Positions 23,938 to 54,636 of a DNA stretch of 64,000 bases are shown here, one piece after another; within the stretch, counting starts at the first letter, position 1; each line of letters begins with the position of its first letter. The position numbers and the translations under genes were made by a program. Source of the stretch: Candidatus Bathyarchaeia archaeon (GTDB lineage: Archaea; Thermoproteota; Bathyarchaeia; Bathyarchaeales; Bathycorpusculaceae); the NCBI GenBank assembly GCA_049516875.1, contig JBEKSS010000009.1, forward strand, positions 62,833 through 126,832. Reading direction: 5' to 3'. The notes below the pieces were generated by a model. The model saw only the letters and a list, made by a program, of their open reading frames with translations. It was not told the origin of the DNA and searched no databases.

Positions 23938-24054
23938 GCGCGCGCTAAGTAAGTCATTCCTTTTATTGTTTTTGTTTGTTTGCATGGGGGCTGAGAGAAA
24001 GAAAGAGAGAATGAGAAGTAGAAAGAAGTGTGTGTTTGGGATAAGACTTTACCC
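23938..24054 (+). repeat. Family B dispersed element: GT/GA-rich flank plus GGGATAAGACTTTACCC core (24038-24054)
   Basis: Flank GAGAAAGAAAGAGAGAATGAGAAGTAGAAAGAAGT matches the reverse complement of about 43020-43055. Confidence 0.75.
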
Positions 24055-24108
24055 TTTCTCTCTCTCATCACAACCACGGAGTATGTTTCGCCGGATTATT
24101 CCCGCGAT

Positions 24109-24831
24109 TTAGCTGGTTGCCGTGACATTGATGTAGGTTTCAGCCCAAAATGGAGGAAGGTAAGAGGACAAGCTAGGGTAGAAACGAGGGTCCGGTACGA
24201 AGGCGTCTACAACGTATGTGCCCGGAGTAACACGTAAAGAAGATTCTGGATAAATGACTGTCTGGTTCCACACGAATGTTCTTGTTAGGCTTTGGCCGGG
24301 GGGAATTGTGAGCGTCGTCTGACTTTGGTTAAGTGGAACAGTATACCACATTTCGAGGCCCTCTTCAGGACTATCAGCGATATAATATGTATTCCACACT
24401 TCGACTATGACGGGAGGATCTACGATAGAAGAGAAGGAGTGGGGTATGTAGCCTAGGTTTGTCAAGGTCACTGTGATGTGGACGTCTTCGGTCAGCGCGT
24501 AAATAGACTTGTCTGTTGAGACTGTGAAAGACCATTTCGGGGTGCCAATGACCCAGGCTGCGTGGGTGGCTCCTGAAGACGCGATTATCAAACCGAAAAT
24601 GAGAACAAGAAACTTTCTCCAGCTGAGCCTTTGATTACTTAGCAGATGATCTAAAGCAAAAACGAAAGTGAAAATCCAAGCAAACGCTAGAATAGGATAC
24701 GCCCATACGTACTGCATTTCTTGATAGAGATTTACTTCTTGATAAACTGTCATTGCAAGACTTGCACCCGTCAAGATGCAGACAGACGCACTAAACACCA
24801 GAAGGCTGAGTCTGAAGCTCATTCTCTTCAC
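24109..24831 (-). CDS. Membrane protein with C-terminal Ig-like (BsuPI-like) domain
   Basis: Three TM helices, then VSTDKSIY...ITVTLTN...PGQSLTRTFVWNQ...PGTY. Confidence 0.65.
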   Translation of the reverse strand: MKRMSFRLSLLVFSASVCILTGASLAMTVYQEVNLYQEMQYVWAYPILAFAWIFTFVFALDHLLSNQRLSWRKFLVLIFGLIIASSGATHAAWVIGTPKWSFTVSTDKSIYALTEDVHITVTLTNLGYIPHSFSSIVDPPVIVEVWNTYYIADSPEEGLEMWYTVPLNQSQTTLTIPPGQSLTRTFVWNQTVIYPESSLRVTPGTYVVDAFVPDPRFYPSLSSYLPPFWAETYINVTATS

Positions 24832-25029
24832 TTTTTCAGAGACGTCTCACGGAATTTAAACTTTTGGACGCACCACGTGCGCTGGAAACGCAATAATGCC
24901 GATTTTTCGTCAATGTTCACCCGTCCACAGGTCAAGCGCGCGCAGAATGGGTTGAACTCGATGTCTGTCTGTGTCTCTCAGAGAGAGGTAGTATATAGGT
25001 GAAAGAAGCAGAGATAGAGGTTTGGGTTT

Positions 25030-25048
25030 GGGGATAAAACTTTACCCC
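25030..25048 (+). repeat. Family B palindromic core GGGGATAAAACTTTACCCC
   Basis: Flanked by the complementary arms GGTTTGGGTTT and AACCAACAACC. Confidence 0.8.
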
Positions 25049-25129
25049 AACCAACAACCGACGACGCGCGCGCACTTTCATATCTGCAGGAGGAATCACT
25101 CAGCGCACGTGCTATTCGCTTGTGCAGCT

Positions 25130-25828
25130 TCAAACTTTTTCAGGTGTGATGTTTAGCCATATCTTTCGTTTTAGACCTCCAAAGGAGGTGAGGCTTGTGA
25201 CAAGCAAAGTGCCCGCCAGGATGAGATTTCCCAAGGTGGCAGATGCAGGGTTTTGTGCAATATAGAGGCTGACACATACAAAAATGTAGAAAGACAAAAG
25301 ACCCGTGAGGCATTGAGTCGCGTGGATGATTTTTCGTGCTTGATAAGCCTTTGATTTCAAGACACTTAGAACGGATCTCAACCGTTTGGAGATATCGGAA
25401 AGATCATCTAAGATAAGAGTCAAACCGCCTAAAACAAAGAATCGTCCAACATTAGTCGCTAGGCTAGCGTTGCGTGCCGTGAATAGACTGACTAGAGGAA
25501 CGGATGTGGACATCTTTAGCATAATAGCGGATAAAACCAAGACCACGAACCCATAAACGTAGTGATGAAACCATAACCTTCCAGTTTTCATTCTACCAAC
25601 GCTCATGGCCGGAAAAATGTTTACAATTGAAGCTAGAATTATCACCCAGAAAAGGGAACCATCAACCAGATACGGCGGATAAAGCTTCCAATTAGCCTCA
25701 TAAAAACCCGCCAAGAGTCCGATTGCATACACTATGCACAGAAGGCAATTGAAAGTCAAGACCAAACTAAACAGTTTTCTTCCACAGACCGAGACAAGGC
25801 TAACCACTGAATCGGCACCACTCCGCAA
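25130..25828 (-). CDS. Multi-pass membrane hypothetical protein
   Basis: About 6 hydrophobic segments; FHHY.YG and LILDD motifs. Confidence 0.7.
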   Translation of the reverse strand: MRSGADSVVSLVSVCGRKLFSLVLTFNCLLCIVYAIGLLAGFYEANWKLYPPYLVDGSLFWVIILASIVNIFPAMSVGRMKTGRLWFHHYVYGFVVLVLSAIMLKMSTSVPLVSLFTARNASLATNVGRFFVLGGLTLILDDLSDISKRLRSVLSVLKSKAYQARKIIHATQCLTGLLSFYIFVCVSLYIAQNPASATLGNLILAGTLLVTSLTSFGGLKRKIWLNITPEKV

Positions 25829-26097
25829 TCTTCAAACTGGCATAATAAATTCGTGAATCCGTCTAATAGCTGTTTTTGTAAACCAAATCATTAAGTCTCA
25901 TTTTAGCACGCGCTAAAAAGCCAATTGCTTCTTGGCCTGCGTTCAAAACAAACCCATTTAGAATAAACTTCTATGCGGACACCCACCGGTCCACTTGAAA
26001 CTGCAAATGGATCTTGCTTTGAGCGCGCGCGAATTTTGGTAGAATTCTGTAAAAAGTTTATAGTCCAATCTTCGAGGCACATTGTGTAGGAGTAGGA

Positions 26098-26324: not shown

Positions 26325-26590
26325 CGTCGTGTGTGTGTTTGTTATGTGTGCATGTTTTAGTTATGTGTGTGAGGAGAGAGAGTAAGAGTATTAGAGTAAG
26401 AGTATGAGAGAGAGAGAGAAAGAGAGAAAGATAAAACTTTACCCCAACCAACCAATTTCACGGTCACTCGCTCTGCCAGTCACTCAAGCTCTCAATCACT
26501 CGCTTTGCCAACCTGCTCCTCTACTCCTACACCTACCTATACCTATACCACCACACCACACACGCACACGGCGTGAGTGTGAAGGAAGGG
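26325..26590 (+). repeat. Long family B element: microsatellite-like flank, core (26430-26445) and CA-rich tail
   Basis: 26430-26590 is the inverted homolog of 42053-42220; terminal CACGGCGTGAGTGTG is also inverted at about 50013-50027. Confidence 0.75.
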
Positions 26591-27226: not shown

Positions 27227-27316
27227 CATGTCACGCGCTAAAGAGTGAAAAGGCGCGCGCATTCGGATTTGTTGGTGCGTGCGCATGGACTGTTTCAAAA
27301 AGCAAGTGCGCCTGCT

Positions 27317-28084
27317 TCAGCGCAATAGGTTTAGAAGTTGCTCTGCATCCTTTGGAGGGTAGCCTGAATAGTACTTGCTGAAATATCCAAAAACCTCCAA
27401 TTGCCTATCCAAGAAACTCTTCACCTGAACTGCCCACTTTCTAATGTCTTCTGTTCTGTCAACTTCGACCTTACACAAAGTTCCATTCACCTTTCTTCTA
27501 TCTCCTTTCAACCTCACGTAGACAAAATCGGTCGCTACCTCCTCCTCAGGGACAGGCTGACCAACTAAAACCAGAGCCACACCGTTCTCTCTGAGAAGAG
27601 AGTTCAACTTTTCTCCCAGCAAGCCTTTGTTTCTCACTTCAACGGCGTAGCGAAAGCCTTTCGGCAAGGTGGATAAAAACTCTCGCAGAGTTGGAAAATG
27701 CTTGGGTCCAAATGAGCGGGGGAACTGGAGCAGGAGCGGTCCGAGCTTGTTCTGCAAATGGGACATTCTGGAAATGAAGGTGTCCACCTCTCTTTCACAA
27801 TCCCGCAGCATTTTGACGTGAGTTATGATTCTGGGAAACTTTGCTGAGAACAAGAAACCCTCAGGCGTCTGTTTTCTCCAAGCCTTCACCGTGCTTGCCG
27901 AGGGAATCCTGTAGAACGTGTTGTCTAATTCCACAGAGTCAAAGTGTTTCGCATATTCGGCCAGAAACGCTGCGGGCTTGAGGCCACGTGGATAGAAGTC
28001 GCCGACCCAGAACCAGTAGCTCCAGCCCATCGTGCCAATGTGTAATTTTCCTATTCTGCCTCTTTTGCCCTCAGAACTAGCCAC
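27317..28084 (-). CDS. DUF72 domain protein
   Basis: IGT.GWSY..W...FYP, VELDNTFYRIP, FSAKFP..ITH, LLQFP, AVEVR. Confidence 0.9.
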   Translation of the reverse strand: MASSEGKRGRIGKLHIGTMGWSYWFWVGDFYPRGLKPAAFLAEYAKHFDSVELDNTFYRIPSASTVKAWRKQTPEGFLFSAKFPRIITHVKMLRDCEREVDTFISRMSHLQNKLGPLLLQFPRSFGPKHFPTLREFLSTLPKGFRYAVEVRNKGLLGEKLNSLLRENGVALVLVGQPVPEEEVATDFVYVRLKGDRRKVNGTLCKVEVDRTEDIRKWAVQVKSFLDRQLEVFGYFSKYYSGYPPKDAEQLLNLLR

Positions 28085-29451
28085 TGTTTCTCCCCCGCCT
28101 TCTTAAACCGCGCCAACACATACCTGCCGCGTAATCTCTGGCCGTGCAGAGTGAACTCCACCAGGTTATCACTCCAAACCTTCGTCTCGTACGTCCCACT
28201 GTCAAATATCTTCACCGTTCCAGCTCCATACTGCCCTTCCGGTATTGTTCCCTCAAAACTCCGATATTCCAGCGGGTGATCCTCCGTTTCCACGGCAAGC
28301 CTCTTCTCCCCCGGCTGCTCAGGCATTCCCCTCGGAACAGCCCAGCTTTTCAACACCCCGTTCTTCTCCAGTCGCAAATCGTAATGAAGCCTTCTCGCGT
28401 GATGCTCCTGAACAACAAAAGTTCGTCCCCCCTCGTTGCTAACCGTCCCTGATGGTTCCGGTGTGACCGCAAAGTCCCTTCTTGAAACGTACGGTTGCAG
28501 GCTACCCTGCATTATCTGATCCAACGTGCACTCGGAAGGAAGCTTGTCATCCCTAATTCCAAGAAACCTAGCCATGCGCAGTCTGCCATCTTTGGTAACG
28601 TTTTGATAAGCCACTTGGCAAACGGTCTCAGGCTTCAACCAGACTATCTCTTCTTGAGCATCGACCCCCTCGAGAGTCTTATCCTCGACTCTGAGAGGTT
28701 CAAACGTTTTCAACAGCGATTCCATGTTTTTTTGACTGAAGCCAGTTCCCACCTTACCCACGTAGACGGGTCCCGCCTTGCCAAACAGTCCCAAAACCAG
28801 TGCCCCAAACGTCGACTCTCTCGCTCCTTTGCCGATTGTGTAGCCAAAAATGACGCAGTCGCACGTCAGGATTGGTTTGATTTTCAACCAGTTCGTGCTT
28901 CTGGCTCCAGGTTCGTACGTGCTGTCCTTTTTCTTGGCCATCACGCCTTCCATGCCCTTCGCCAAGGCAGCCTTGTAGTATGCCTCTCCCTCTGTTTCCA
29001 CGTATGCGGACAACACAACGTAGCTTCCTTCGCGCACGTACTCTTTCAAAAGCCCTTTTCTCTCGATCAGTGGAAGCTGAACAAGAGGGTTCCCGTCTTT
29101 CTCGAGTATGTCGAAAACTATGTAGGTTGCGGGTGACGTTAGCCGCAAGTACTTGACGTTTTCAATGGAAGAGGTCTTGCTTCTCTCCGAGAGCGCTTGA
29201 AAGTCAGCCTTGCCTCCCTTTATGACGACTATTTCGCCGTCGATCACCGAGTTCTCTGTTAGGCTTTTCAGCTCTTCTAGCTCTGGAAAATTGTATCGCA
29301 GTTCTCTGTCGTTTCTGCTTCTTATGCTGAGTCCACCGTTAACGTAGCTTATGGCCCTTATGCCGTCCCATTTGACTTCGAATATCCAGTCTTCTGAATT
29401 GAAAGGTTTTTCAGTGTGCTGGGCAAGCATCGGCCTGTAGTGTTGTCTCAT
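28051..29451 (-). CDS. ligD: NHEJ ATP-dependent DNA ligase fused to a C-terminal 3'-phosphoesterase domain
   Basis: FEVKWDGIR, IDGEIV, FDIL, EGVMAK, WLKIK; PE motifs FVVQEHHARRLHYDLRLE, SWAVPRG, EDHPLEY..FEG.IP.GQYGAG. Confidence 0.92.
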   Translation of the reverse strand: MRQHYRPMLAQHTEKPFNSEDWIFEVKWDGIRAISYVNGGLSIRSRNDRELRYNFPELEELKSLTENSVIDGEIVVIKGGKADFQALSERSKTSSIENVKYLRLTSPATYIVFDILEKDGNPLVQLPLIERKGLLKEYVREGSYVVLSAYVETEGEAYYKAALAKGMEGVMAKKKDSTYEPGARSTNWLKIKPILTCDCVIFGYTIGKGARESTFGALVLGLFGKAGPVYVGKVGTGFSQKNMESLLKTFEPLRVEDKTLEGVDAQEEIVWLKPETVCQVAYQNVTKDGRLRMARFLGIRDDKLPSECTLDQIMQGSLQPYVSRRDFAVTPEPSGTVSNEGGRTFVVQEHHARRLHYDLRLEKNGVLKSWAVPRGMPEQPGEKRLAVETEDHPLEYRSFEGTIPEGQYGAGTVKIFDSGTYETKVWSDNLVEFTLHGQRLRGRYVLARFKKAGEKQWLVLRAKEAE

Positions 29452-30257
29452 TGTTTCTTCAGCTGATTGAGCGTTTCCTGCAGGGCTGCCATGAGCTCTT
29501 TGGCTTCCTCTTTCACGGGTTTTTCAGCGACTATTGTTTCACCCTTGAGCTTCTTTGCAATGAGCTTTCGAATCCTCTCCTCGTAAGTGTCCTCATATTC
29601 CGTTATGTCGAATTCGCCTGAAAGATCGTTTATTATCTTCACGGCAAGGTCCAGTTCTTTCTTCTCGGGTTCCTTGAGTCGTTTCAGCTCTTCGGAGTTG
29701 TTCGGATCTGAAATCTCGTACGCGTATCGAAGCGTGGTCAAGACTAGCGCTCCCTTGTAGGCGTGCAACAAGACAGGATACTCTTTCGTTCTCAGAGTGA
29801 TTCTTCCCGCGCCGGCCTTGTGCGTTTTCTGCAGGGCTGTCAAGAGTAAGCTGTAGGCTTCATCACTCTTGTCGGGCGTGAGCACATAGGATCTTTCGAA
29901 GTATATCGGGTCGATAGAGAGGTAGTCCACAAACTTGTCGATGCGGATTTTTTGGCTGGACTGTGGCCTCGCCGCGTCAAGCTCCCCTTTCTGGAACACT
30001 ATGAAGCGGTTCTTGCTTACCTCGTAGCCTCTCACAGTGTCTTCCCAAGGAACCACCATGTTATCCTTGACGCAAACCTTCTGATACCTCAACGGTTGTC
30101 CATCTTGTTTGTGAAGGAACCTGAAAGAAAAAGCCTTGTCAAACGTCATCGTGTAAAGCTTAACCGGCACGTTGACCAGCCCGATTGTCACGGCTCCACT
30201 CCAAAACGGCCTTTTCGGAATTCGAACATTTGGTTCTTCAATTGGTTCTTCCATCAA
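29448..30257 (-). CDS. ku: Ku protein (NHEJ end binding)
   Basis: WSG..TIGLVNVPVKLY, VRGYEV, IDPIYFERSY, LMAALQETL. Confidence 0.93.
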   Translation of the reverse strand: MMEEPIEEPNVRIPKRPFWSGAVTIGLVNVPVKLYTMTFDKAFSFRFLHKQDGQPLRYQKVCVKDNMVVPWEDTVRGYEVSKNRFIVFQKGELDAARPQSSQKIRIDKFVDYLSIDPIYFERSYVLTPDKSDEAYSLLLTALQKTHKAGAGRITLRTKEYPVLLHAYKGALVLTTLRYAYEISDPNNSEELKRLKEPEKKELDLAVKIINDLSGEFDITEYEDTYEERIRKLIAKKLKGETIVAEKPVKEEAKELMAALQETLNQLKKQ

Positions 30258-31111
30258 TTCACACTCTTCTCAAGTCTCTGCCTACCGTCAAGCATTCCCT
30301 TCCAAGGGTTGCTCTCAGACTTGGCAATAGTGAACAAAGTGAAACTCTCTGGCTTTAATCCTTTTTTGACTTCGCTCCAGTCTAATGGCATAGAAACGGT
30401 TGCTTGAGGAGTAGCCCTCAGACTGTACGGACAGATCATAGTTCTACCATGAGAATTCTGCCTGTAATCAATGTAAACAGTTCCGGGCTCTTTGGACTGG
30501 GAAACTTCCGAGACAACGGCTGGAGACTCTCGGGCCAAGTACTTTCCGACTTGGTGCACGTATTCCCTTGTCTGAGCAAAGGTGTACTCTCGAACTATGG
30601 GAACAAGAATGTGCAATCCCTTTTTTCCAGAAGTCTTCACGTAAGATCTAAGACCCAAGCCGTCAAGCTTCTCCTTCAGCGTCAACGTCACGGCGACAGT
30701 GTCGTTCATGCTCGCCGGCGGCTCCGGATCGATGTCAAAGACCATAAGGTCGGGCTTCTCGAAGGCGTCTATTTTTGAGAGTGTCATGTGAAGCTCTAGG
30801 GCCGCGAGGTTGGCAAGCCAAACAAGTGTGTCTAGGTCATTGCACACAACGTAGTTTATTTCCCGCTCGGCTGCTTCGGAATGTTTCTTGAACGTCTTCA
30901 CCCAAGCAGGAGTGCCCTGAGGCATGTCCTTTTCGTAGAAGCCCTCCTTGTCGACGCCGTTGGGAAACCGCGTCAGAACTGTCGGCCTGTTGGCAAGGAT
31001 GCCTAACATTCTGGAGGCCATTCTGATGTAGTGTTGGATCACCTGCGCTTTCGTCACTATTACCTCTGGATAAAGTATTTTGTCCAAGTTCGTGAACTCT
31101 ACCCTAGTCAA
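30254..31111 (-). CDS. ligD: Stand-alone LigD polymerase (AEP superfamily)
   Basis: TNLDKILYP, RFPNG, FYEK, VFDIDP, KTSGKKGLH, YIDY.QN..G.T...PYSLR. Confidence 0.92.
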   Translation of the reverse strand: MTRVEFTNLDKILYPEVIVTKAQVIQHYIRMASRMLGILANRPTVLTRFPNGVDKEGFYEKDMPQGTPAWVKTFKKHSEAAEREINYVVCNDLDTLVWLANLAALELHMTLSKIDAFEKPDLMVFDIDPEPPASMNDTVAVTLTLKEKLDGLGLRSYVKTSGKKGLHILVPIVREYTFAQTREYVHQVGKYLARESPAVVSEVSQSKEPGTVYIDYRQNSHGRTMICPYSLRATPQATVSMPLDWSEVKKGLKPESFTLFTIAKSESNPWKGMLDGRQRLEKSVN

Positions 31112-31501
31112 CTTCTCCAGGCAGACTCACCCTCTGAGTTGAATATGTATCTCTTCGTCCGGATATTTGTGCGTGTTACCGCTCAATAGCACGCCCTGCG
31201 AGTCAGGCATCTGTATATGACCAAATCCTTTTGAAAATAAGAAATTATCGTTGAAGAACCAGAAGACAATTACTAGTACGAGTAGCGCCACCAAGAAAAC
31301 GATATCTTTGGTTGGAAAATGTCTTTCTGTTACTAACTTCTCTGTGGATTCCGCTTTGTCTCTAAGTTCTGCATACTTAAGATTGACCGCTTCTAGCTTT
31401 TCTCGTGAATTGTAACGCGCGGGCGATGTTTGCTTTGTTCCCGTGAAACGGGCTCTCGCACTGCTTAATAGTCTGCAGAACGGTATCTCTGATTGATTAG
31501 A

Positions 31502-32407
31502 ATGGCAGGTTTCAGAAGAATCGATAGAATCTTGAAAGGCAAGTCGACTCTTGAAGGCGCAGGCGTCAAGCTAAAACGTGCATTTGGTCCTCATGAAGTT
31601 CCTTTGCTGGACCCGTTTTTGCTTCTTGACGATTTTCACTCCAATAACCCGGACGACTATTTGGCGGGTTTTCCTTGGCATCCCCATCGAGGTATAGAAA
31701 CAGTGACCTACGTGCTTGAGGGCATGGTTGAGCACGGAGACAGCATGGGAAACAGGGGCGTGATACGTTCGGGCGATGTGCAGTGGATGACAGCGGGCAA
31801 CGGCATCATCCATCAGGAAATGCCGAAGGGTTCCGAGGGTGGGCTGATGTGGGGCTTCCAGCTTTGGGTGAACCTGCCCGCGTCGCACAAGATGGACGAC
31901 CCGACGTACAGGGGCATAACGAGAGGCGAGATCCCTGAGGTCGAGGTTAATCCAGGCGTCAGAGTCAAGGTAATCTGCGGCGAATTGAAGGGAAACAGGG
32001 GGCCCGTTCAAGGTCTCACGGTGGACTGTGAATACTTGGACGTGATGTTGGAACCGAACGCTCAACTCGAACACTCCACTAAGAAGGGACACGGAGCCTT
32101 TGCTTACGTAATCGGTGGAAGAGGCTACTTCGATCAACAGAGATCAAACCCAATCGACGCAGAACAGGTCGTCGTCTTCAGCGGAGGCGAAAAAGTCAAG
32201 ATTAGCACAGGGGACAATAGTCTGCGGTGCCTCATGATATCGGGAAAGCCTGTAGGTGAACCGGTAGCTTGGCTTGGGCCCATCGTTATGAACACCCAGG
32301 AAGAGCTGAGAACTGCGTTCAGCGAACTCGACCGAGGCACTTTCCTGAGAAACCCAAAGGCCGCGAGGAACCCGCCTGAACTGCACCCGACCTATTACAA
32401 AAGATAA
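31502..32407 (+). CDS. Pirin family protein
   Basis: DPFLLLDDF, GFPWHPHRGIETVTY, WMTAG.GI.HQE, GPIVMNT. Confidence 0.95.
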   Translation: MAGFRRIDRILKGKSTLEGAGVKLKRAFGPHEVPLLDPFLLLDDFHSNNPDDYLAGFPWHPHRGIETVTYVLEGMVEHGDSMGNRGVIRSGDVQWMTAGNGIIHQEMPKGSEGGLMWGFQLWVNLPASHKMDDPTYRGITRGEIPEVEVNPGVRVKVICGELKGNRGPVQGLTVDCEYLDVMLEPNAQLEHSTKKGHGAFAYVIGGRGYFDQQRSNPIDAEQVVVFSGGEKVKISTGDNSLRCLMISGKPVGEPVAWLGPIVMNTQEELRTAFSELDRGTFLRNPKAARNPPELHPTYYKR

Positions 32408-32606
32408 GGAACAGCAAGCAAGCTGGCACGGAATCGATTCGAGAATCTGCTGGCCCGCCCCAAACAGACACATCAGGAATGGCGCAAGATTAGGTCAGAG
32501 ATCTTAGCGTGGTGTGGAATATAGATTGAATTGGGATTTGGGGTTTTTCGATCAGCGTGAACACAGACTGGAAAGTCTTTAAAGGCCTAGTCAATTAGAA
32601 TGGAAG

Positions 32607-32996: not shown

Positions 32997-33027
32997 AAGC
33001 GCGTGCACATCTGTGAATAGCTGGTTT

Positions 33028-33045
33028 GGATAAGACTTTACCCCC
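33028..33045 (+). repeat. Family B palindromic core
   Basis: GGTTTGGATAAGACTTTACCCCCAAACC. Confidence 0.75.
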
Positions 33046-41471: not shown

Positions 41472-41530
41472 TTGTTAGTGCGTTAATAAATCGCGCGCGG
41501 TTTGGAAAATGGGTCGCGCATGCTGTGAAA

Positions 41531-42052: not shown

Positions 42053-42220
42053 CGTCCTTGTCACACTCACACTCCGTGTGCGTGTGTGGTGTGTGTGGGT
42101 AGGTATAGGTAGGTAAGGGTAGGAGTTGGCAGTGGCAGTGACCGAGAGTTTGAGTGATTGGCAGAGTGAGTGACCGTGAAATTGGTTGGTTGGTGGTTGG
42201 TTGGGGCAAAGTTTTATCCC
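42053..42220 (-). repeat. Long family B element, inverted (core 42203-42220)
   Basis: Reverse complement aligns with 26430-26590. Confidence 0.8.
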
Positions 42221-42976: not shown

Positions 42977-43137
42977 GGGTTTAGGGTTTGGGGGTAAAGT
43001 TTTATCCCAAAACCCATCTACTTCTTTCTATTTCTTATTCTCTCTTTCTTTCTCTTACTACCCACATATAAACAAGCAAAAACAAACAAAAACAAGCAAA
43101 AACAAACAAACAAAAAACACCTTTACAGACGCGCGCA
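42977..43137 (-). repeat. Family B element, inverted (core 42990-43008) with GA-rich and CAAA-repeat flank
   Basis: Inverted homolog of 23938-24054; ends at CGCGCGC. Confidence 0.75.
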
Positions 43138-46000: not shown

Positions 46001-46025
46001 TTTTTTTGTTTGTGTGTTTGGGTTT

Positions 46026-46043
46026 GGGATAAAACTTTACCCC
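46026..46043 (+). repeat. Family B palindromic core
   Basis: TTTGGGTTTGGGATAAAACTTTACCCCAACCAAACCAAACC. Confidence 0.8.
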
Positions 46044-46115
46044 AACCAAACCAAACCTGCTCTCCGCAAGTGATAAGAATTCAGTGGAAGACATAATGAT
46101 GAAGGTGCACATTTC

Positions 46116-46622: not shown

Positions 46623-47556
46623 TTTGTTGAAGTGTCCACAGAACTGCAGGATATTCCGCTAGTTGTTCATGGAATAGTCCAGCGTTGTCAATAATGTTTG
46701 GTTTGAAGATTTTCTCATCGTAGAACTTGTCTATTGCTTCGATTTCACTTTTCTTGATGCTGGCCAGATGCACTTTAGTGAACTTCTGAACTTCTCTTGT
46801 TATTTTGGCAAAATCGTATTGTGAGAGTTTCTCTGTTTGCAGTAGGTTTCTCAGGCTGGAGTCTATTGGAATCTGCGCAGCCAGTTCGGGGTTGATTTCG
46901 TGCATTCTTGGTTTTTTATGGGTTAGACTTTCAACGATTGCACATTTGCGGAAGATGTTGTGGTCGAATTTCATTTTGGTTATTTGATACGTGTCGAAAA
47001 GGTCTCGAGGTGTTGTTCTATAGAGCAGAGTACACCATTTGTTTGCGAACAGTTCTTCTCTCATTGGAGTTCTCGTCTTGAATGTTTCATGTGTTCCTAT
47101 GTGTTTGAAATCTGCTGAGATGTCGGTTTTGAGAATTGGGGTTCGGCGGAGGTATCCTATTTCTATTTTGAAGTTGTCTTCAGAGCCATGAGCATTGACG
47201 TACCTGACAGTGAATCGTGTGAGCGGATAGCTTGCGTTTATGGCGATGTCCGTCTGGTCGTATTCTTGTCTGTAGATTAGATCTTTCAGCCGTTCGTCGA
47301 TTTCCTTTCGTATCTCTCCCCAGTCTGCATTGTTTGTATGTCGGTAGTTGAAGTCGAGGTCTATGGACAATCGCAGTACTTCTGGTGAGTAGATGAATGT
47401 GAGAGCTGTTCCGCCGTAAAGTGATAGGCGGTCTGAAAGGTATTTCACAGCCGAGATGTCCTCTAGCAGATCCGAGATTCGGCATGCCTTTTCTATTTCT
47501 TTGGGGCTGAACCCGTATTGCAGCGTCAACGCATCAAAATCGTATTTCTTCTTCAC
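46561..47556 (-). CDS. abiEii: AbiEii-family nucleotidyltransferase toxin (type IV TA)
   Basis: GGTAL...RLSIDLD, KIEI, K...L..R..PRDLFD. Confidence 0.88.
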   Translation of the reverse strand: MKKKYDFDALTLQYGFSPKEIEKACRISDLLEDISAVKYLSDRLSLYGGTALTFIYSPEVLRLSIDLDFNYRHTNNADWGEIRKEIDERLKDLIYRQEYDQTDIAINASYPLTRFTVRYVNAHGSEDNFKIEIGYLRRTPILKTDISADFKHIGTHETFKTRTPMREELFANKWCTLLYRTTPRDLFDTYQITKMKFDHNIFRKCAIVESLTHKKPRMHEINPELAAQIPIDSSLRNLLQTEKLSQYDFAKITREVQKFTKVHLASIKKSEIEAIDKFYDEKIFKPNIIDNAGLFHEQLAEYPAVLWTLQQIKERKEEDLHNAERSQHENR

Positions 47557-48372
47557 TCAGATGCCTCTCAGTTGTTCCTCGAAGGCTTCTGGAATGTACA
47601 GGTTCCATCTTCTGTTGAGGCTGCCTTTTTTTCCATGGACCAAGTATTGTGGTGGACCTCTGATTTCAATCTCGATTTTGCTCAGCGCAGTGTCGGTAAT
47701 GTGTTCATAGAACGGTGATCTCTCTCTCAAAAGGTCCACGATGAAGCCGATTCGCCTAGGAAGACTCCTCTTCTGTTGCTGAAGGGTTAGGCTAATCAGT
47801 TTTTCAACGTCGAGTCCGTGGAGATTTTCTAGACTTTTTATGCATTCTTCCCATCCTCCGGCATATTGAACTCTGTCGATGCATTCAATGAACGTCCTTT
47901 CTTTGCTACTCACTCTCAAAAGGCTGCTTCCATAGGGTTTCTCTACTACCTGTGATGTCGTGTCTTTGACGAATAATGGTCTGAAGATGAACCGTTTGTA
48001 ACCGAATGGATCGAACCTGTCTTTCGAGTTGACGCATACGTAGGCTTCGTTGAAAGCAGAGTAGGCGCAGCCGTAGTATTCCAAAGCGGTGTGGAAGCCC
48101 AAGTAGTATTCTTTTCTGATTTTGGAGGCGATTAGAAGTTTATCTGGTTCGTACTTTTCTGTTTTTTCAAGCGGAGATAGAACAGCATACAACCCCTTCC
48201 GGATTGCCAGGAGTTTGTGAGCTTCGATCAATCTTTTGACATATTTTCGATAGATGTATTTGCGGTTTGCAGGTCCTTCGATTACGCTTGATGATGCTTG
48301 TACAATTTCGTCAAAGCTTGCTATTTTCATGGGGAGAAGAGCTTTGTAGAGCGCTTCAGTTTTGTTCACCAT
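47557..48372 (-). CDS. abiEi: AbiEi-family antitoxin/transcriptional regulator
   Basis: N-terminal wHTH with IRKGLY, YLGFHTALEYYG, ERTFIECIDR; abuts the toxin. Confidence 0.85.
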   Translation of the reverse strand: MVNKTEALYKALLPMKIASFDEIVQASSSVIEGPANRKYIYRKYVKRLIEAHKLLAIRKGLYAVLSPLEKTEKYEPDKLLIASKIRKEYYLGFHTALEYYGCAYSAFNEAYVCVNSKDRFDPFGYKRFIFRPLFVKDTTSQVVEKPYGSSLLRVSSKERTFIECIDRVQYAGGWEECIKSLENLHGLDVEKLISLTLQQQKRSLPRRIGFIVDLLRERSPFYEHITDTALSKIEIEIRGPPQYLVHGKKGSLNRRWNLYIPEAFEEQLRGI

Positions 48373-48386
48373 AGCCTTTTCGCTTT

Positions 48387-48502
48387 TTTAACGTGGTTAC
48401 CCATTTTATGGCATACTGCATTAAAAATATTTAAAGCTTGCTAAGCCAGCAGCTACACAGAAATTTAACGTAGTTACCCATTAATGGGCATACAACATTA
48501 AA
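48387..48502. promoter_or_regulatory. Two 39-bp imperfect palindromic repeats upstream of abiEi (putative operators)
   Basis: TTTAACGTGGTTACCCATTTTATGGCATACTGCATTAAA (48387-48425) and TTTAACGTAGTTACCCATTAATGGGCATACAACATTAAA (48464-48502), with a TATTTAAA box between them. Confidence 0.7.
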
Positions 48503-48822
48503 TTCGTGAAAAGCAAGCGACTACGCACATCTTGGATAGTCAACTATCCAAATATCGCATATTTTGGACAACACTCTAACCGACAAGTCGCGGTTCTATG
48601 TCCCGAATTGCACGCTCCGACCATGTTCTTCGAATTTTCACGATTAACGTGATTTCAGGTTCATTACGTATAAGGAACAAACAATAGTTAACACGCTGAT
48701 AGTAGCGAACTTCTGCACCCTGCCACACTATTTGTTCAGAACATAACACGCCTACAAGGTCAAACCTAACGCGCGCTCAGGCGGCCGCTTCACGTTTCGC
48801 ATCCGGCACTCTCGGCAGCTTA

Positions 48823-49003
48823 GCGCGTATGCGTGTTCCTAAAATGGTCAAAAATGGCCATAATTCCGTTTTTCACATTTCTGCCAGTGCTTAAGACAGT
48901 TACTCAAAGAAATCAAGAACAGACACGAAGCCCAAAGCCGTCCCTAGATCATGAAGGGCGAATAAAAACCATTTTAGGCCAATTTCGGAACAAGCATGCG
49001 CGC
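48823..49003. mobile_element. MITE family A, copy 5
   Basis: Near-identical to 41063-41246; TA on both flanks. Confidence 0.85.
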
Positions 49004-49149
49004 TACACGCAACGAATGCTTTTGAACGTGTGCTCTGTATGTGGTCTGTGAAGCGGTACTAGATTCTGGAACATGATGTACTAAAGCTTAGGATAAAATC
49101 CAACGGATGCATTGTTTAACATAAGAGAAGATGAATTTGGGGTTTAAGA

Positions 49150-49905
49150 ATGAGTGAAAAGAAGTTTGATGTTAGTGGGAAGCTTCTGATTGTACTAGGC
49201 CTAGCCGTATTGTTATTCTCTTTGAGTGCCAAATCCGTCAGTGCTCAAGTTGGTGAGGTTGCGCTCAAGCCGACAGACGATGCCTATGTTGATTCTGGCA
49301 ACCCAAACTCAAGCTATGGCGAGCGGAACTATCTTCAAATCACGAATTACAATAGTGGAATCAACAGTGCCTACGCGAGCATAGTATGGCTGAAATTCAA
49401 TTTGTCTTCTGTTCCAGACGGGGCAGTGATTGATGGGGCAATACTTCAGCTGCGCACATCCAGCATTACTGGATCATTCAGTGTTAATGCTTATTCAGGC
49501 TCTGATTTCCTGAATGCGTCTGCTGTTGTTTCTTGGACAGAATTGACATTGACATATTCCAACATGCCTAGCTACAACACGACATCAATGGACTCAGTAT
49601 TAGTTGCAACCAATAATCAATGGTATAATTGGAGCGTAGTTGACGCCGTCAGAGACGCTTTGAATAGCACCGCCAGAACAGTAACAATGATCTTGCTTGA
49701 TCCCTCTCCTTCTGGCCTCGTCTCATCAATTTCGTTCAATTCTAAGGAATTTTCCATCTCAGATTATGCTCCTACACTAACTGTCCATTGGAGTGGGGTT
49801 GTGCCAGAGTTTCCATCATTTCTTATTCTGCCATTGTTCATGATAGCAACACTACTAGCGGTCATGGTTTACAAAAAGAAAGGCGTGAGAACAAGCCAAA
49901 GTTAG
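49150..49905 (+). CDS. Secreted DNRLRE/CBM96-like protein with VPEF-CTERM anchor
   Basis: Signal peptide, DDAYV....P...YG, LKFNLS, W.E..LTY.N.P, F.SKE, VPEF + TM + KKK. Confidence 0.8.
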   Translation: MSEKKFDVSGKLLIVLGLAVLLFSLSAKSVSAQVGEVALKPTDDAYVDSGNPNSSYGERNYLQITNYNSGINSAYASIVWLKFNLSSVPDGAVIDGAILQLRTSSITGSFSVNAYSGSDFLNASAVVSWTELTLTYSNMPSYNTTSMDSVLVATNNQWYNWSVVDAVRDALNSTARTVTMILLDPSPSGLVSSISFNSKEFSISDYAPTLTVHWSGVVPEFPSFLILPLFMIATLLAVMVYKKKGVRTSQS

Positions 49906-50002
49906 ACAGAACCTAGAGGAAACGCTCAGAAGACAAAAAAATCTTTAATCCGCACAGCAACAGAAAACAAGGCTAATTTTTTTCCGTATTTCGAGCGCGC
50001 GC

Positions 50003-50050
50003 CCTTCACTCACACACTCACGCCGTGGGTTTGGGGGTAAAGTTTTATCC
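50003..50050 (-). repeat. Internally deleted family B element, inverted (core 50033-50050)
   Basis: Terminal CCTTCAC..ACTCACGCCGTG joined directly to GGGGGTAAAGTTTTATCC. Confidence 0.7.
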
Positions 50051-50291
50051 AACCAACCAAATTTGACGTGGCGCTGACAAACAATGTAGGTGTGAGAGCT
50101 AATACCTACATTGTTTTAGTGGAGAGCAGAGCATTAGAGCTGTTATCCTCATTTCGTCTGTTGATGTACGTTCGTCGATGGATGTTGCAAAAACCTCCGC
50201 AGTACCAAGAATCTGCATGCAATCATTGAAAACGTTATTCATGAAAAGGCTTTTCAGATACTTAATGGTACTTAGATTTCAGTCTGATAGC

Positions 50292-53200
50292 ATGTCAAAC
50301 ACATCTAGCGTCGATGCAATCCTGACTGAGGCTAACATAAAAGAAAAAGAGTATAATTGGCTAGGCGCGGCTGAGACTTACGCGAAAGGATTGGACTCAA
50401 TATCAGCACAGAACTTCTCAAGCTCAGGCGATCTTCACGAGCGTTTAGGCTATGCCTTTCGCAAAGCAGCGATGCAGGCCGAAGATGTGAACGAGTTCAA
50501 GAACAGTATGAACAAGGCTGCTGTTCACTATGGTAAGGCTCTTGAGGCTTATGAAAGGATCAGTGACTCTGAGACGGCGAACGCCAAAGGTCTTCGATGT
50601 GATGCTGCCAAAGCTTACGTTGAGCATTGGTTGGCGTCTGACAGTTTTGAAAAGAAGAAATGGTTGGATGAATGTTGGAAGCTCGCAACTGGGAGTATGC
50701 GAACATTCGAAAAGGGAGAGGAACGAAGTGAATTTGTGAAAACATACGTCCAACTTTCAGACGCAGCGATTTTTCTGTTTACTCGCGAACCCGATTTCAA
50801 ATCCCGCGAAAAGGTAATACAAGAGGCAGTGGAGTCAGGCGAGAAGGCAATAGAATTCCTCTCAACTTCGGGAGATGCTTGCCAACTTGCGATGGCTTAC
50901 GCGCGAACCGTTGTTTTTCTAGGAGTTTTCAGCTATAACTTCAGAGACATTAATGAAAGGGAGAAATATCGACAGGAAGGCCTCAACTATTGGGGCAAGG
51001 CCAAGCAGCTTTCTGAAGAAATAGCGATGACCGAGTCTGTGTACCCTGTTTTTGGAGGCCAAGTTTTCTTCGGCTTGGAAGGCGCCGACGAAGCGTTTGA
51101 AAACTGTACGAAAGCATTAGAGTACGGCAGAAAGATGAATGACAAGTTCATTATCGGTTGCGCATTAGATTGGCTCGTCTACCACACTGCCTGGAAGCTT
51201 CCGGGAACCGATGATCCAGTTGAGAAAGAACGCGCCATTGAAAGGTGTCTGAAATATGCAGAGGAATCACTGTGCGAGCTCAGCAAGGTGCCCTTCGTAA
51301 GCCCCCGCGGCGATCTTGCCTGGACCAAATCAATTGAAACCATGCGTCTCCTTCTTCAACATGACGTTGAGACTGATCTGAAGAAAAAAAGAGTCTTAGA
51401 TGAAGAGGCTTTCCAGTGGGGTCTGCGCAATCGAAAAATGTGGGAAGAATCTGGTTATCCGGAAATCATGATGAGTTGGTATGGTGGGGCAGCCATGCTT
51501 CGCCAAAGGCTCGCCAAATTCGAAACAGACCCTGCGGATAGAAAAAAAGGTCTTGAAGAAGCCCTCGCTTACATAAATAAAGCCATAGGAATTCAAGAGG
51601 GACTTGTCCCCCTTCAATACTGGAACATTGGTATCTCGCGAAGTTCGTTGGGAAACGTAGAATCTGAACTCGCTGAAGTGACCGAGGACTCGGAGAAAAA
51701 GAAGGCTTTGCTTAGAGCCGCACTGGCCGACAAGCAGAAAGCCATAGAATTGTGCATCAGAGAATTGACGTACATGACGAAGAAAGGCTCGGGAACCTCT
51801 CTCTTCGCAACCGTAGGAGCACTGCAATATGGATATGCACACGCCCTTGTCCGTTTGTACGAGTTAACGGGCGAAAAGGAGCTTTTGAAAAAAGCGGTAC
51901 AGAGTTATGACGCTTCAACCGAATCCTATCAAAAGCTCAGCTTGATGAGTAGAATAGCGGAGAATTGTTGGAGAAGAGCACAAGTATATGACAAGCTTGG
52001 AGAGCATTTGGCAGCCTCTCAGGATTTTGAGTGCGCAGCACGGAGCTACGCTTCGGCATTAGAGAAGTTCCCACAGCTCAAAGCCTTCTACAATGACCAC
52101 GCCCTGTACATGCAGGCTTGGAGCGAAATTGAAAAAGCAAGATTTCACCATCAGAAACAAGAATATAACCTGGCAGAAGAGCATTTTGACAAAGCCGCCG
52201 GTCTTCACAAATCTTTGAAACGATGGAACTATCTCGCACCAAACTATTCCGCTTGGGCAAAGCTTGACGAAGCAGAAGAACTGAGCAGAAAAGAGAACAG
52301 TGAAGAAGCTCTTCAGGCCTTCGAAACAGCTTCTGCGCTTTTGGAGGAAACCAGTAAGTCTCTGGAGAACCAGTTGCCAACGATCGAGGACGCCGAGGAA
52401 AAAGAGATGGCAGCAGAAATGTTGAAGGCTACAGGCCTGAGACATCAATACTGCGCAGCACGAGTCGCAGTTGAAGAAGCCAAGATCTTTGACAAGAAGG
52501 GAGATCACTTGTCAAGCTCCGAGAAGTACAGTTCGGCAGCTGAAATCCTTGAGGGTATACAGGAGGCTGTAGAAACAGAGCGGGACAAAAAGGAGTTCAA
52601 ACTTATCGCAACACTCTCTCAAGCTTGGGCAAAGATGACGTTGGCTGAAGCCGAGGAATCGCCAGGTTTGTACGCGGAAGCATCTCAGCTCTTTGAGAAG
52701 GCCAAAGAACTGAGCCCTAACGAGAAAGCAAAGACGCTAGCTTTAGGACACAGTCGCTTCTGCAGAGCACTTGAAGCTGGAATGGAATTTTCCGACACGG
52801 CGGACGAAAAACTCCACAATATCGCCGTTCAGCAATTGGAAAGCGCTGCAAAATACTACGTGAAAGCTGGCATTCAGAGCGCTTCGGAATATGCCAAAGC
52901 AACCGAGCTGCTTCTAGACGCTTACTCAAACATCAACAACGCAAAGAAAGAAGCTGACCCTGAAAGAAAAACAAAACTGTTTGCGATGGCCCAAAAAATC
53001 CTACAAACTTCCGCGGGCTCTTTCATGAAAGCTGAACATCCAGAAAAGAGAGAGCAGGTTCTGAGACTCCTTGACAAAGTGAAAGAAGAACAAGAATTGG
53101 CTATGTCCCTCAGTGAGGTATTACACACTCCTGCAATTGTCTCTACAACAACCGCATTCAGTACGCCTACTCCGAATCATGAGAATGCAGTGGGTATTGA

Positions 53201-53606
53201 GAAGTTTGAGAACGCCAACATACAGGCAAACATTATTTCCCGCCAAAAACAGCTAAACGTGGGTGAAAATTTGGACTTAGAGATAGAGCTCGTCAATGCA
53301 GGAAAAGGGCCTGCGCTGTTGATCAAAATCACCGAGCTCATTCCGAAAGGCTTCGAATTGGCTGAAAATCCCGAAGCCTACAGAGTGGAGGACAGCTACT
53401 TGAACATGAAGGGAAAACGAGTTGACCCCTTGAAGACCGTAGAAGTGAAGCTTAAGCTCAAGCCGAAAGTTCAAGGCGAGTTCTCACTCAAACCCACGGT
53501 ACTGTATCTCGACGAAAATGGACAGTACAAGTCAAATCAGCCTGAGCCGCTGACTTTAACGGTCACGGAGCTTGGAATCAAGGGCTGGCTCAAAGGAGAA
53601 AGATGA
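50292..53606 (+). CDS. Large TPR-like helical repeat protein with C-terminal Ig-like domain
   Basis: About 1000 aa of Ala-rich helical repeats; C-terminal L.VGE...LEIELVNAGK...PTVLY. Confidence 0.8.
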   Translation: MSNTSSVDAILTEANIKEKEYNWLGAAETYAKGLDSISAQNFSSSGDLHERLGYAFRKAAMQAEDVNEFKNSMNKAAVHYGKALEAYERISDSETANAKGLRCDAAKAYVEHWLASDSFEKKKWLDECWKLATGSMRTFEKGEERSEFVKTYVQLSDAAIFLFTREPDFKSREKVIQEAVESGEKAIEFLSTSGDACQLAMAYARTVVFLGVFSYNFRDINEREKYRQEGLNYWGKAKQLSEEIAMTESVYPVFGGQVFFGLEGADEAFENCTKALEYGRKMNDKFIIGCALDWLVYHTAWKLPGTDDPVEKERAIERCLKYAEESLCELSKVPFVSPRGDLAWTKSIETMRLLLQHDVETDLKKKRVLDEEAFQWGLRNRKMWEESGYPEIMMSWYGGAAMLRQRLAKFETDPADRKKGLEEALAYINKAIGIQEGLVPLQYWNIGISRSSLGNVESELAEVTEDSEKKKALLRAALADKQKAIELCIRELTYMTKKGSGTSLFATVGALQYGYAHALVRLYELTGEKELLKKAVQSYDASTESYQKLSLMSRIAENCWRRAQVYDKLGEHLAASQDFECAARSYASALEKFPQLKAFYNDHALYMQAWSEIEKARFHHQKQEYNLAEEHFDKAAGLHKSLKRWNYLAPNYSAWAKLDEAEELSRKENSEEALQAFETASALLEETSKSLENQLPTIEDAEEKEMAAEMLKATGLRHQYCAARVAVEEAKIFDKKGDHLSSSEKYSSAAEILEGIQEAVETERDKKEFKLIATLSQAWAKMTLAEAEESPGLYAEASQLFEKAKELSPNEKAKTLALGHSRFCRALEAGMEFSDTADEKLHNIAVQQLESAAKYYVKAGIQSASEYAKATELLLDAYSNINNAKKEADPERKTKLFAMAQKILQTSAGSFMKAEHPEKREQVLRLLDKVKEEQELAMSLSEVLHTPAIVSTTTAFSTPTPNHENAVGIEKFENANIQANIISRQKQLNVGENLDLEIELVNAGKGPALLIKITELIPKGFELAENPEAYRVEDSYLNMKGKRVDPLKTVEVKLKLKPKVQGEFSLKPTVLYLDENGQYKSNQPEPLTLTVTELGIKGWLKGER

Positions 53607-53742
53607 CCGAAAACTAGTTTTGCGGAATCTGAGGGCGCGCTATTCCTTCACACTCTGCGATCGCGCTAAGCGCGCGCGTGATAAACAACACTTTTAAGTT
53701 ATTTGATGCTAATTAAGAAAGCAATTCCGAGTTGTTGAAACC

Positions 53743-54243
53743 ATGAAAATGAGAATGATAAAACTACGCCCTGAATTCCTCATAGAAACATTGCAGGGAA
53801 AAGCATCTTTCACTTCCAACCTGCCAGACAATATTGAACTATTAGATATTAAGTACGACTTTTTTTCCAAGCAAGTATCAGCAATCATAAGAAGCGACAG
53901 TTTTGAAGACGTTGTAGAATCCTATCCACCTCCAGAATTCAATGTCATCTATACGACAAACCCCAAAGCCGAATCTCAGCCCACAACAAACTCCAAACCT
54001 GAATTTAAGCCCACAGAGAAAACGCCGGTTCAGCCAAGTCAAGACACAAGCGCAATAGAAAAAGAATTCAGCCCAGAGCAGCGCAATTTGCTGAGTTTCA
54101 CAGTAGACGGAGAATACGTCACAATAAAGCCAAACCAATACTTGAAGAATGAGTGGGATGAAATTAACGATACTGTGAGAAGTTTAGGTGGTAAATGGAC
54201 GAAAGGCGACAACTTCAGCTATTGGGCAATTCGACGAACTTAG
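53743..54243 (+). CDS. Hypothetical protein
   Basis: 166-aa ORF with upstream TATA-like element; C-terminal LGGKW....SYW domain. Confidence 0.65.
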   Translation: MKMRMIKLRPEFLIETLQGKASFTSNLPDNIELLDIKYDFFSKQVSAIIRSDSFEDVVESYPPPEFNVIYTTNPKAESQPTTNSKPEFKPTEKTPVQPSQDTSAIEKEFSPEQRNLLSFTVDGEYVTIKPNQYLKNEWDEINDTVRSLGGKWTKGDNFSYWAIRRT

Positions 54244-54615
54244 CAAGCATAAAGCAAAGTACACAAGACTAGTTTCTTCAGCTGACCAACTAGCCTTTTT
54301 TTCATCATTCATAGAACTTACGAGATATCCTTTTACCCCTCTCAACGCAACCGCAACTATTTTTTATCTTTCGAATGTTTTGCTGGAAGCGAAACCTGCT
54401 TTTTCTCTTTTCTTTTCAGTTCTTTCTCTCGCTGTAATTTTTTATGCTGCTCTAAACCTGCAGCTTTCTTTTCTTTTCTTGACAAAAGCTCATCAACCTT
54501 AGCAGGCAATAGAAGCATTACGTTACTTCCTGCTATGGCCTGAACCCACTATTCAGCCCTGAAAGTAACTGTTTTTTCCACCACAGCTCCCGTCGTCGTC
54601 AAGGTTGGTTGGTTT

Positions 54616-54636
54616 GGATATAACTTTACCCCCCCC
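54616..54636 (+). repeat. Family B palindromic core adjoining the left end of the Cas1 element
   Basis: GGTTGGTTTGGATATAACTTTACCCCCCCCAA. Confidence 0.7.

Follow-up and report, generated by a model that had tools for sequence, protein, structure and literature searches.

Short imperfect palindromes at the edges of gene cassettes in Bathyarchaeia: possible dif-like recombination sites

The 64,000-nt stretch analysed here (the window) comes from a Candidatus Bathyarchaeia archaeon (assembly GCA_049516875.1, 2.43 Mb and 97% complete, hereafter G000; contig JBEKSS010000009.1, here C9, positions 62833-126832), and its position 64000 is the end of that contig. It contains a cas1 gene inside an element with terminal inverted repeats (TIRs) and, dispersed to the left of that element, copies of a short core sequence that form the subject of this study. 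A search of the window for GGGATAAAACTTTACCCC, with up to three mismatches allowed, gave nine matches (three exact, two with one mismatch and four with two), while 100 shuffles gave a mean of 0.04 and none of them got to nine. The nine dispersed cores listed in a first-pass annotation of this DNA are borne out by this search, in their places to within 2 nt and in all their strands. The cores and the Cas1 element beside the last of them are arranged as follows.

24038..24055, + strand: core 1, two mismatches; left flank GT/GA-rich, right flank CT-rich
25031..25048, + strand: core 2, exact; both arms; 82 nt beyond the stop of the open reading frame (ORF) 25130-25828 on the minus strand
26428..26445, + strand: core 3, two mismatches; left flank GA-rich, right arm AACCAACC
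33027..33044, + strand: core 4, two mismatches; 31 nt downstream of the RidA-like gene 32607-32996
42203..42220, - strand: core 5, one mismatch; right arm only
42991..43008, - strand: core 6, exact; junction point in population variants
46026..46043, + strand: core 7, exact; both arms; a canonical site like the B-recognition element (BRE) and TATA box lies 20 nt rightward, before ORF 46116-46622
50034..50051, - strand: core 8, one mismatch; 166 nt ahead of the ATG at 50217 of a surface-protein gene of 1129-1142 amino acids (aa)
54615..54632, + strand: core 9, two mismatches; 79 nt outside the TIR of the Cas1 element
54633..54711, no strand: spacer from core 9 to the TIR, 79 nt; holds GCGTGCTCGC at 54683-54692
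54712..54778, + strand: left TIR of the Cas1 element, 40 + 28 nt in the window
55250..56275, + strand: cas1 (PF01867, 127.6 bits; TIGR00287, 125.5 bits), outside the repeat family
63879..64000, - strand: right TIR of the Cas1 element, truncated where the contig ends

By crude ORF calls, seven of the nine cores lie outside ORFs of at least 90 aa and the other two (42203 and 42991) within ORFs of 112 and 132 aa that cross the low-complexity arms, so that the earlier description of all copies as intergenic holds for seven of them. Over the whole assembly, only 7 of 57 cores fall in such ORFs, though these make up 83% of G000. When the arms are judged by composition (G/T-rich on the left, A/C-rich on the right), five window cores possess both, three only the right and one only the left; among the 57 copies of G000, both arms are seen in 15, a right arm in 38 and a left arm in 27. 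Three window cores fold clearly better than shuffles (z <= -2, folding as single-stranded DNA). The cores had been taken for hairpins, usually with complementary arms; both arms are indeed present in five of the nine, but clear folding is confined to three and two-armed copies are a minority genome-wide, and the hairpin was rejected as a defining property of the family. The conserved part of the core is its asymmetric centre. Beside core 9, the inverted match of 40 bp in the TIR begins at 54713, in keeping with the distance of about 80 bp first reported, but the G-run GGGGGTGAC starts at 54674 and is thus separated from the core by 41 nt rather than by less than 40.

The 57 copies in G000 are clustered: 48 of them have another copy less than 5 kb away, where a uniform spread would give about 12. 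For comparison across genomes we used a 17-mer of the core with at most one mismatch. Each of the five genomes in the genus carries it (38, 4, 16, 11 and 24 copies), as do 52 of 151 sampled genomes of the family (maximum 44 copies). The reversed control pattern was absent from every one of these 151 genomes, and the 17-mer from all 12 genomes taken from other families of the order. At least 112 GTDB genome stretches match exactly in a search that included part of the right arm, and among those listed all but one are titled Bathyarchaeia or Bathyarchaeota. Seven IMG/VR contigs also carry the core with arms, adjoining Shedu, TIR-domain and type I restriction genes, a MEDS regulator and one HK97-type capsid gene; four more IMG/VR matches are without arms and resemble chance matches. 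The cores thus make up a family of short, imperfect palindromes that is lineage-wide.

When seeded on the central 11-mer, a profile built from 185 instances reads kkkkTkGGATA / TACCCCmAmmm around AAACTT, which corresponds to 11-6-11, and it is best conserved in the spacer and at the arm positions next to it; the conservation of the right arm is overstated, since part of that arm was required by the pattern with which the GTDB loci had been retrieved. Two imperfect inverted arms of 11 nt around a 6-nt spacer are also the layout of dif, which the relevant passages of PMC8371274 and PMC2958812 give as two 11-nt inverted repeats and a 6-nt spacer.

The boundaries of sequence homology coincide with the cores in many places. 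We aligned eight pairs of core-bounded units together with flanks of 1,500 nt. Four pairs, each from different genomes, align from core to core only and have unrelated outer flanks (L084/L108, 94.6% over 698 nt; L091/L119, 94.7% over 750 nt; L137/L108, 90.8% over 610 nt; L029/G000:C12, 93.7% over 504 nt), while in the remaining four the alignment covers only the interior or only a part of the unit. A homologue elsewhere that covers at least 70% of the unit was found for 27 of 142 core-bounded units, and 40 such homology hits (reciprocal hits and one duplicate locus counted) have cores on both sides in 19 cases, on one side in 11 and on neither in 10. Three adjacent cassettes of L108 have their homologues in three separate loci, two of which are on different contigs of one other genome; this is the pattern that would be expected of mobile modules bounded by recombination sites. 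The cassettes scanned include genes for defence (AbiE, Shedu, TIR and restriction-modification), surface proteins, GNAT acetyltransferases, flavodoxins and regulators.

In the remaining four genomes of the genus, the genes of the window's island are likewise split into blocks that lie apart on different contigs. Block 25073-25913 is 96% identical to G004:C22 and its homology begins 25 nt to the right of core 2; block 50224-53608 is 92% identical to G003:C1; and block 53670-54612 is 96-99% identical to G002:C4, where it lies between two cores, and its homology halts 2 nt before core 9. A block with Ku, ligase and polymerase genes and a pirin gene (27290-32437) is syntenic in G004:C16 and G002:C3 (78-84% identity) and moves as one larger block, with no internal cores.

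Orientation was studied in 246 distinct cores, de-duplicated over all sequences compared, with neighbours defined as cores less than 5 kb apart. Of 123 neighbouring pairs, 88 share one direction (p 2e-6). Between co-oriented neighbours there are 74 units, with 978 bp as the median length and exactly one ORF in 42 of them. The strand of the ORFs relative to the core is random within units (49 the same, 59 opposite). Over still longer distances, all 13 cores between 1.18 and 1.70 Mb of G098:C3 are on the plus strand and all eight between 0.54 and 0.69 Mb of G076:C3 on the minus strand, and these runs extend beyond single arrays. Replichore polarity was rejected as their cause, the orc1/cdc6 genes not being placed at the strand switches.

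Some units have direct flanking cores with ordinary outer arms and inverted (CCTT)n/(AAGG)n inner arms. Such units are found at G000:C1:82027/84540 (2.5 kb) and in G004:C1 (L025 17155/3682; 13.5 kb, with a full cas1 inside), and the unit of G076 (L180 4861/7098) has inverted inner arms that are CCT-rich/GGA-rich. The 13-nt sequence ATAAAACTTTACC is common to both hybrid sites of such a unit, and would be the expected trace of integration at the core, which would leave attL/attR-like sites if a tyrosine recombinase acted and a duplication if the cuts were staggered.

Window positions 41000-60999 were compared (minimum likeness 90) with population contigs of four further runs from peat, wetland and sediment. 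The DNA to the left of core 6 (42991-43008) has three right-hand partners at 43009-43011, namely 43009 itself, 50213 or 53694. The joint 43010>50213 has a depth of 1450 and a side of 255, with 15 other letters between its sides, and the joint to 53694 has 27 letters between, as in G002:C4. In the run where the 43010>50213 strain is dominant, depth is lost past about 54.6 kb, indicating a strain that lacks the Cas1 element. Five further joints (42228>42989, 43007>46016, 43011>50034, 46042>50024 and 46051>50026) have sides of 21-28 letters, are probably repeat matches and were not used.

A larger unit is represented by an 8.9-kb island with seven cores (G000:C1:76723-85587; L039 724-9587), which is absent from G003 and G004. 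The empty sites of these two relatives read through with no core, and the cores are therefore internal features of mobile DNA and not chromosomal targets. The island is inserted between ...GTTCCCnnCCC and GCTA..., at a place between a gene end and the next promoter, and has imperfect inverted ends of about 13 nt with a CCCnCCC-type repeat on both sides. Unrelated to the core is an element of about 190 bp resembling a miniature inverted-repeat transposable element (MITE), with inverted ends of about 45 bp, at window positions 41061-41248, 42502-42686 and 48820-49005; dozens of copies (75-98% identity) are present in all four other genomes of the genus. Judged by the alignments and joints described above, a role of the cores as junctions is well supported. 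The earlier suggestion stands to the extent that mobile units end at the other copies and that mobile DNA lands in the island; the link to Cas1 that it included is only a possibility.

We propose, with a confidence that falls somewhat short of even, that the cores are dif-like recombination sites bounding small mobile gene cassettes in the islands and proviruses of Bathyarchaeia. The core would then be the crossover site for site-specific recombination, composed of an 11-nt G/T-rich arm ending in GGATA, the AAACTT spacer, and TACCCC with an A/C-rich arm. The cassettes, typically of about 1 kb and with one gene in either orientation, would be carried by islands that vary and by proviruses. If a cassette, circular or linear, has one site or two half-sites, it might recombine with a resident site, and its insertion would leave it between two co-oriented hybrid sites, by which arrays could grow and become reshuffled. 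The near-symmetric spacer may permit occasional antiparallel exchange, flipping a core relative to its flank. As to the enzyme, the Xer-like tyrosine recombinases, which are multi-copy in the islands, are the most likely candidate and the one we favour. Ten matches to the tyrosine-recombinase family are found in G000, several of them in islands with the motif. Xer-like recombinase genes are located at G000:C11:3858-4703 and G000:C14:18950-19837, with another candidate on C10 (L179:304-1311). Three of the island recombinases have their best match to the archaeal XerA model NF040815 (94-103 bits, below the cut-off of 220); in addition, the distance to a core is 142 nt for one tyrosine recombinase pseudogene and 61 nt for an intact gene in L097. 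A serine recombinase site, as hinted by the central AC dinucleotide, was rejected, PF00239 having no match in G000.

Several observations weigh against this proposal. No recombinase is tied to the site: the window's contig has no match to the tyrosine-recombinase family, such a gene occurs in only 4 of 80 core-centred loci, and the Xer-like integrase family of the islands is present in 26 of 31 relatives irrespective of the motif, for which reason it was rejected as a specific partner. Co-orientation of neighbours is weak in G000 alone (16 of 28 pairs). Since both arms accompany so few of the copies in G000, many would have to be half-sites. A clean polymorphism for insertion or excision of a core-bounded unit was not found (five indels, none at cores), and the joint 43010>50213 is not a simple excision because of the 15 other letters between its sides. 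The core is also flipped relative to the same flank and arm in four comparisons (window 54615 and G002:C4; G000:C1:84540 and L025 17155 of G004; G000:C15:34231 and C1:47932; L091 and L119, at 95% identity), and simple parallel site-specific exchange does not explain this; antiparallel exchange between near-palindromes, or gene conversion, could be the source. Ordinary homologous recombination at short conserved repeats could moreover yield the same mosaic boundaries. Cas1-driven insertion and plain homologous recombination remain live rivals. Two further comparisons gave little: a strict score of arm pairing between neighbouring cores was uninformative because the register slips in the microsatellite arms, and an orthologous intergenic region with and without a core was not found, the synteny at isolated copies giving no match for L058 and one side only for L059 and L060.

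An alternative, which we regard as unlikely, extends the landing-zone idea of the first-pass annotation: a Cas1-solo protein, i.e. a casposase-like integrase, would target the core, and staggered cuts about 13-14 bp apart (across ATAAAACTTTACC) followed by gap repair would yield one more core with every integration event, so building co-oriented arrays with gene cassettes as 'spacers'. We found 1,985 relatives of the window's Cas1. Among the 151 genomes of the family, 24 have both the motif and a Cas1 match, 28 only the motif, 23 only Cas1 and 76 neither (odds ratio 2.8, Fisher p 0.005), and a Cas1 match is present in all 12 genomes with at least 20 cores as against 35 of the 139 others, both figures being uncorrected for kinship and genome size. 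Larger genomes hold more of both features, by which the association is confounded. The two features are also close to each other on occasion, with 5 of 11 Cas1 matches in the genus no more than 1.1 kb from a core and Cas1 in 5 of the 80 core-centred loci of 8 kb, where about 1% would be expected from copy number; the other 75 loci are without it. In G098, a C-terminal fragment of Cas1 abuts a degenerate core. Thus more than half of the motif genomes (28 of 52) have no Cas1 match, and yet the association and the positional link are both present.

Resemblances to casposases can be added to these counts. The 13 nt common to the two hybrid sites of a unit are near the length of the target duplications of 14-15 bp reported for casposases in PMC6614799, and the core ends in ACCCC, where the same paper gives TCCCC as the 3' end of the Aciduliprofundum boonei casposon and reports that T-5A is tolerated. 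It also places the target determinants of the only mapped casposase, that of A. boonei, 9-15 bp upstream of the insertion point. Core 9 ends 79 nt before the TIR, outside a range of about 15-24 bp upstream that applies to A. boonei only, and the ends of the window's Cas1 element are not core-like. This distance, the motif genomes and loci that lack Cas1, and the insertion of the seven-core 8.9-kb island at a site with no core in two relatives count against the proposed leader-like Cas1 target.

The distribution of cas1 itself also tells against insertion by Cas1. The Cas1 closest to that of the window, found in G076, is 86% identical to it, but beyond the gene only about 100 nt are common to the two loci; the G076 gene has no TIRs and sits in a core-bounded unit. 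cas1 itself therefore behaves as a cassette, and looks like cargo. Many Cas1 matches, in addition, are C-terminal fragments. C-terminal pieces (residue ~200-260 to the end) are present at G000:C1:353285-353644, C1:45124-45363 and C15:4533-4793 and in more than 20 places of other genomes, and many are uninterrupted frames of 90-170 aa, which could represent either a stand-alone mini-gene or a recurrent truncation. A bolder version appears doubtful to us, namely that the Cas1-solo of Bathyarchaeia would be a cassette integrase that inserts whole genes at the core and duplicates it, with the islands as giant CRISPR-like arrays, cassettes in the place of 'spacers' and cas1 travelling as one cassette among them. 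If this is true, the system would represent a stage, still living, on the way from casposons to CRISPR adaptation or between the two.

Rather unlikely, in our view, is that the core serves as a conserved protein-binding palindrome (an operator, an insulator or a BRE/TATA-like bidirectional element) which travels with accessory genes, the mosaic boundaries arising from ordinary homologous recombination or gene conversion at the sole sequence that the cassettes share. Gene conversion between near-palindromes would explain the flipped cores. Scored with G000's own BRE/TATA profile, built in this analysis, the core reaches 5.9 bits in one orientation and 7.3 bits in the other, values at the 54th and 72nd percentiles of the best hits of real upstream regions; random 75-nt windows have their 95th percentile at 6.9 bits. 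Six cores lie 4-20 nt upstream of a strong canonical BRE/TATA, and in one population variant the core is 21 nt before the ATG at 50217, the geometry of a leaderless promoter. Canonical promoters are nevertheless not enriched near cores (7.9% compared with 8.7% in controls), and the placement of the cores shows neither a bias to gene starts nor avoidance of convergent gene ends. Their gene contexts in G000 are about even (17, 13, 12 and 12, with 3 at contig ends). From 80 GTDB loci with 158 cores, 28 cores in ORFs and 29 with no ORF on one side were set aside, and the 101 classified are convergent in 29 cases, divergent in 26 and tandem in 24 + 22, on an intergenic background of 26/23/51%. For 11 of the 57 cores of G000 there is no ORF start (at least 60 aa) within 260 nt on either side. 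The distances from core to start are spread widely, unlike those of a conserved G000 promoter used as a positive control (27 copies), which is located 31-64 nt before the start in 15 of 22 cases with a co-directional downstream ORF; a fixed orientation and distance to downstream starts, as in a promoter, are accordingly not seen in the cores. Nor does protein binding predict that neighbours are co-oriented independently of gene strand.

Promoter activity as the main function was rejected, the profile match being weak and the placement like that of random intergenic DNA. A terminator was discarded on account of the absence of any T-run of five or more and of the 26 of 101 cores between divergent starts, and a known RNA family on account of Rfam, which gave no match at the gathering score in the window; no tRNAs were found in the window either. 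Two sequences seen near some cores may be mentioned here. The highly conserved promoter-like box TTTTGCGGAAAAGTTATAGCTGAACC occurs in 27 places in G000 (e.g. C15:34268-34288, C1:47970-47990 and C4:14383-14403), 31-64 nt ahead of the starts of a paralogous family of ORFs of 150-180 aa, and in three cases it is preceded, at 20-35 nt, by a core in either orientation. In G000, the 120 nt before ORFs show a 3.6-fold enrichment of GCGCGC (269 occurrences, 1,110 upstream regions), which has a broad peak 50-100 nt before starts, and is often within 30 nt of a core (in the window, for instance, at 50000-50010 and 25060-25070).

It seems improbable that the core is a selfish miniature palindrome, similar to repetitive extragenic palindromic (REP) elements or MITEs, that spreads by itself into intergenic DNA. 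The copies are intergenic, clustered, numerous and neutral in orientation and context, and some of them form hairpins. On the other side, the Y1/RAYT transposase (PF01797) has no match in the 97% complete G000 assembly, target-site duplications were not seen around the cores, no orthologous intergenic region with and without a copy was found, and the homology from core to core would be left unexplained.

The last alternative concerns the Cas1 element, whose limits can be placed with the help of two metagenome records (L037 and L038), recovered when metagenome contigs were searched for a 30-mer of the TIR. L037 has the left flank, core and spacer as in the window. L038 (9,346 nt, from another assembly) has the TIR at its start and end, 122 nt and perfect, and stops at window positions 54712/64001. 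An assembler extends a contig like L038 until the outer flanks diverge, and the inverted repeat is therefore placed to end at 54712, which leaves the 79-nt spacer and core 9 outside it. The 3' ends of the element (...CCAAGC) are unrelated to the core, and no core is found within the TIR or at its ends. The right junction was not recovered in scans of metagenome, viral and genome collections. Within the spacer, the ten bases of GCGTGCTCGC are an inverted copy of GCGAGCACGC at 54721-54730 in the TIR, and spacer 54633-54711 is homologous to DNA to the right of cores in G002:C5 and G004:C22; the two together may be a relic of an earlier insertion. The left TIR of the window lacks, at 54752/54753, a 54-nt segment (L038 42-95) that the right TIR and the two ends of L038 possess, and is therefore taken to carry a deletion or an assembly collapse. 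At window position 54523, L037 and G002:C4 have about 75-77 extra nt, and contigs of two other runs also break there.

Judging from the limits of L038, core 9 is not the terminus of the Cas1 element as the first-pass annotation had considered it might be. That the core is the true terminus, and the other copies ends of relic or non-autonomous casposons, is highly improbable: in G002:C5 and G004:C22 the core and a homologous spacer do appear again next to left flanks that are unrelated, as though the two had moved jointly, but the inverted repeat halts before them, no TIR holds a core, no inverted copy of the spacer (54633-54712) exists on any other G000 contig, and the elements around Cas1 in G003, G004 and G076 have only cas1 in common with that of the window.

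If the cores are recombination sites, as in the dif-like proposal that we favour, the Bathyarchaeia, which are abundant and uncultured archaea of peat, soil and sediment, would possess cassette exchange of the integron or dif-module type; we found no description of a system of this kind in archaea in the open-access literature searched. The core of 28-40 bp would also provide a concrete substrate for two protein groups to which no role is known here: one is the Xer-like integrases, present in multiple copies, and the other the Cas1-solo clade, which is widespread. For practical use, the cores mark the edges of accessory modules, and assemblies tend to break nearby.

Among the known systems compared, REP elements are similar in being short, intergenic, imperfect palindromes in clusters, but are accompanied by a Y1 transposase, for which G000 has no gene, and we know of no REPs that bound exchangeable cassettes. 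Casposons (Aciduliprofundum boonei, Methanosarcina mazei and Nitrosopumilus) share with the window a Cas1 gene inside long TIRs, here adjoining core 9, and the 3' end required by the A. boonei casposase (PMC6614799) resembles the end of the core. They differ from it in that the core is 79 nt outside a TIR whose ends are unrelated to it, while the known target determinants fall within 15-24 bp; no PolB was seen among the ORFs scanned.

Integron cassettes and their attC sites show a closer likeness, with arrays of mostly single-gene cassettes of about 1 kb, imperfect palindromes between them and sites that are co-oriented. In attC, the ends are conserved and the centre is variable, whereas here the centre is invariant and the arms vary, and the window has no Rfam match. 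The orientation of the genes relative to the site is random here, unlike in integrons, and an intI/attI platform was not found next to the core arrays (tyrosine recombinase in 4 of 80 loci). Archaeal chromosomal dif, the site of XerA, is similar in layout, with 11-nt imperfect inverted arms and a 6-nt spacer in the passages of PMC2958812 and PMC8371274 that describe it. Chromosomal dif is single-copy and near the replication terminus; the cores are clustered in islands at 38-57 copies per genome, with 57 found in G000 and 4-44 in other genomes.

The closest known system is that of the pdif/dif modules of Acinetobacter plasmids. The pdif sites that flank a module are inverted, while neighbouring cores are mostly direct (88 of 123 pairs); the host here is an archaeon, in which the sites lie in the chromosome or in proviruses and not on plasmids, the arms are of low complexity and often missing on one side, and Xer activity at the cores is a prediction. 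The likeness lies in the organisation. As PMC6449649, PMC13141974 and PMC7399989 describe them, the Acinetobacter modules have many dif-like sites per replicon that bound one or a few accessory genes, toxin-antitoxin and resistance-type genes among them, and no dedicated recombinase gene in the module. The same module also occurs there in different contexts with homology ending at the sites, as is found for the cores in the four cassette pairs with 91-95% identity.

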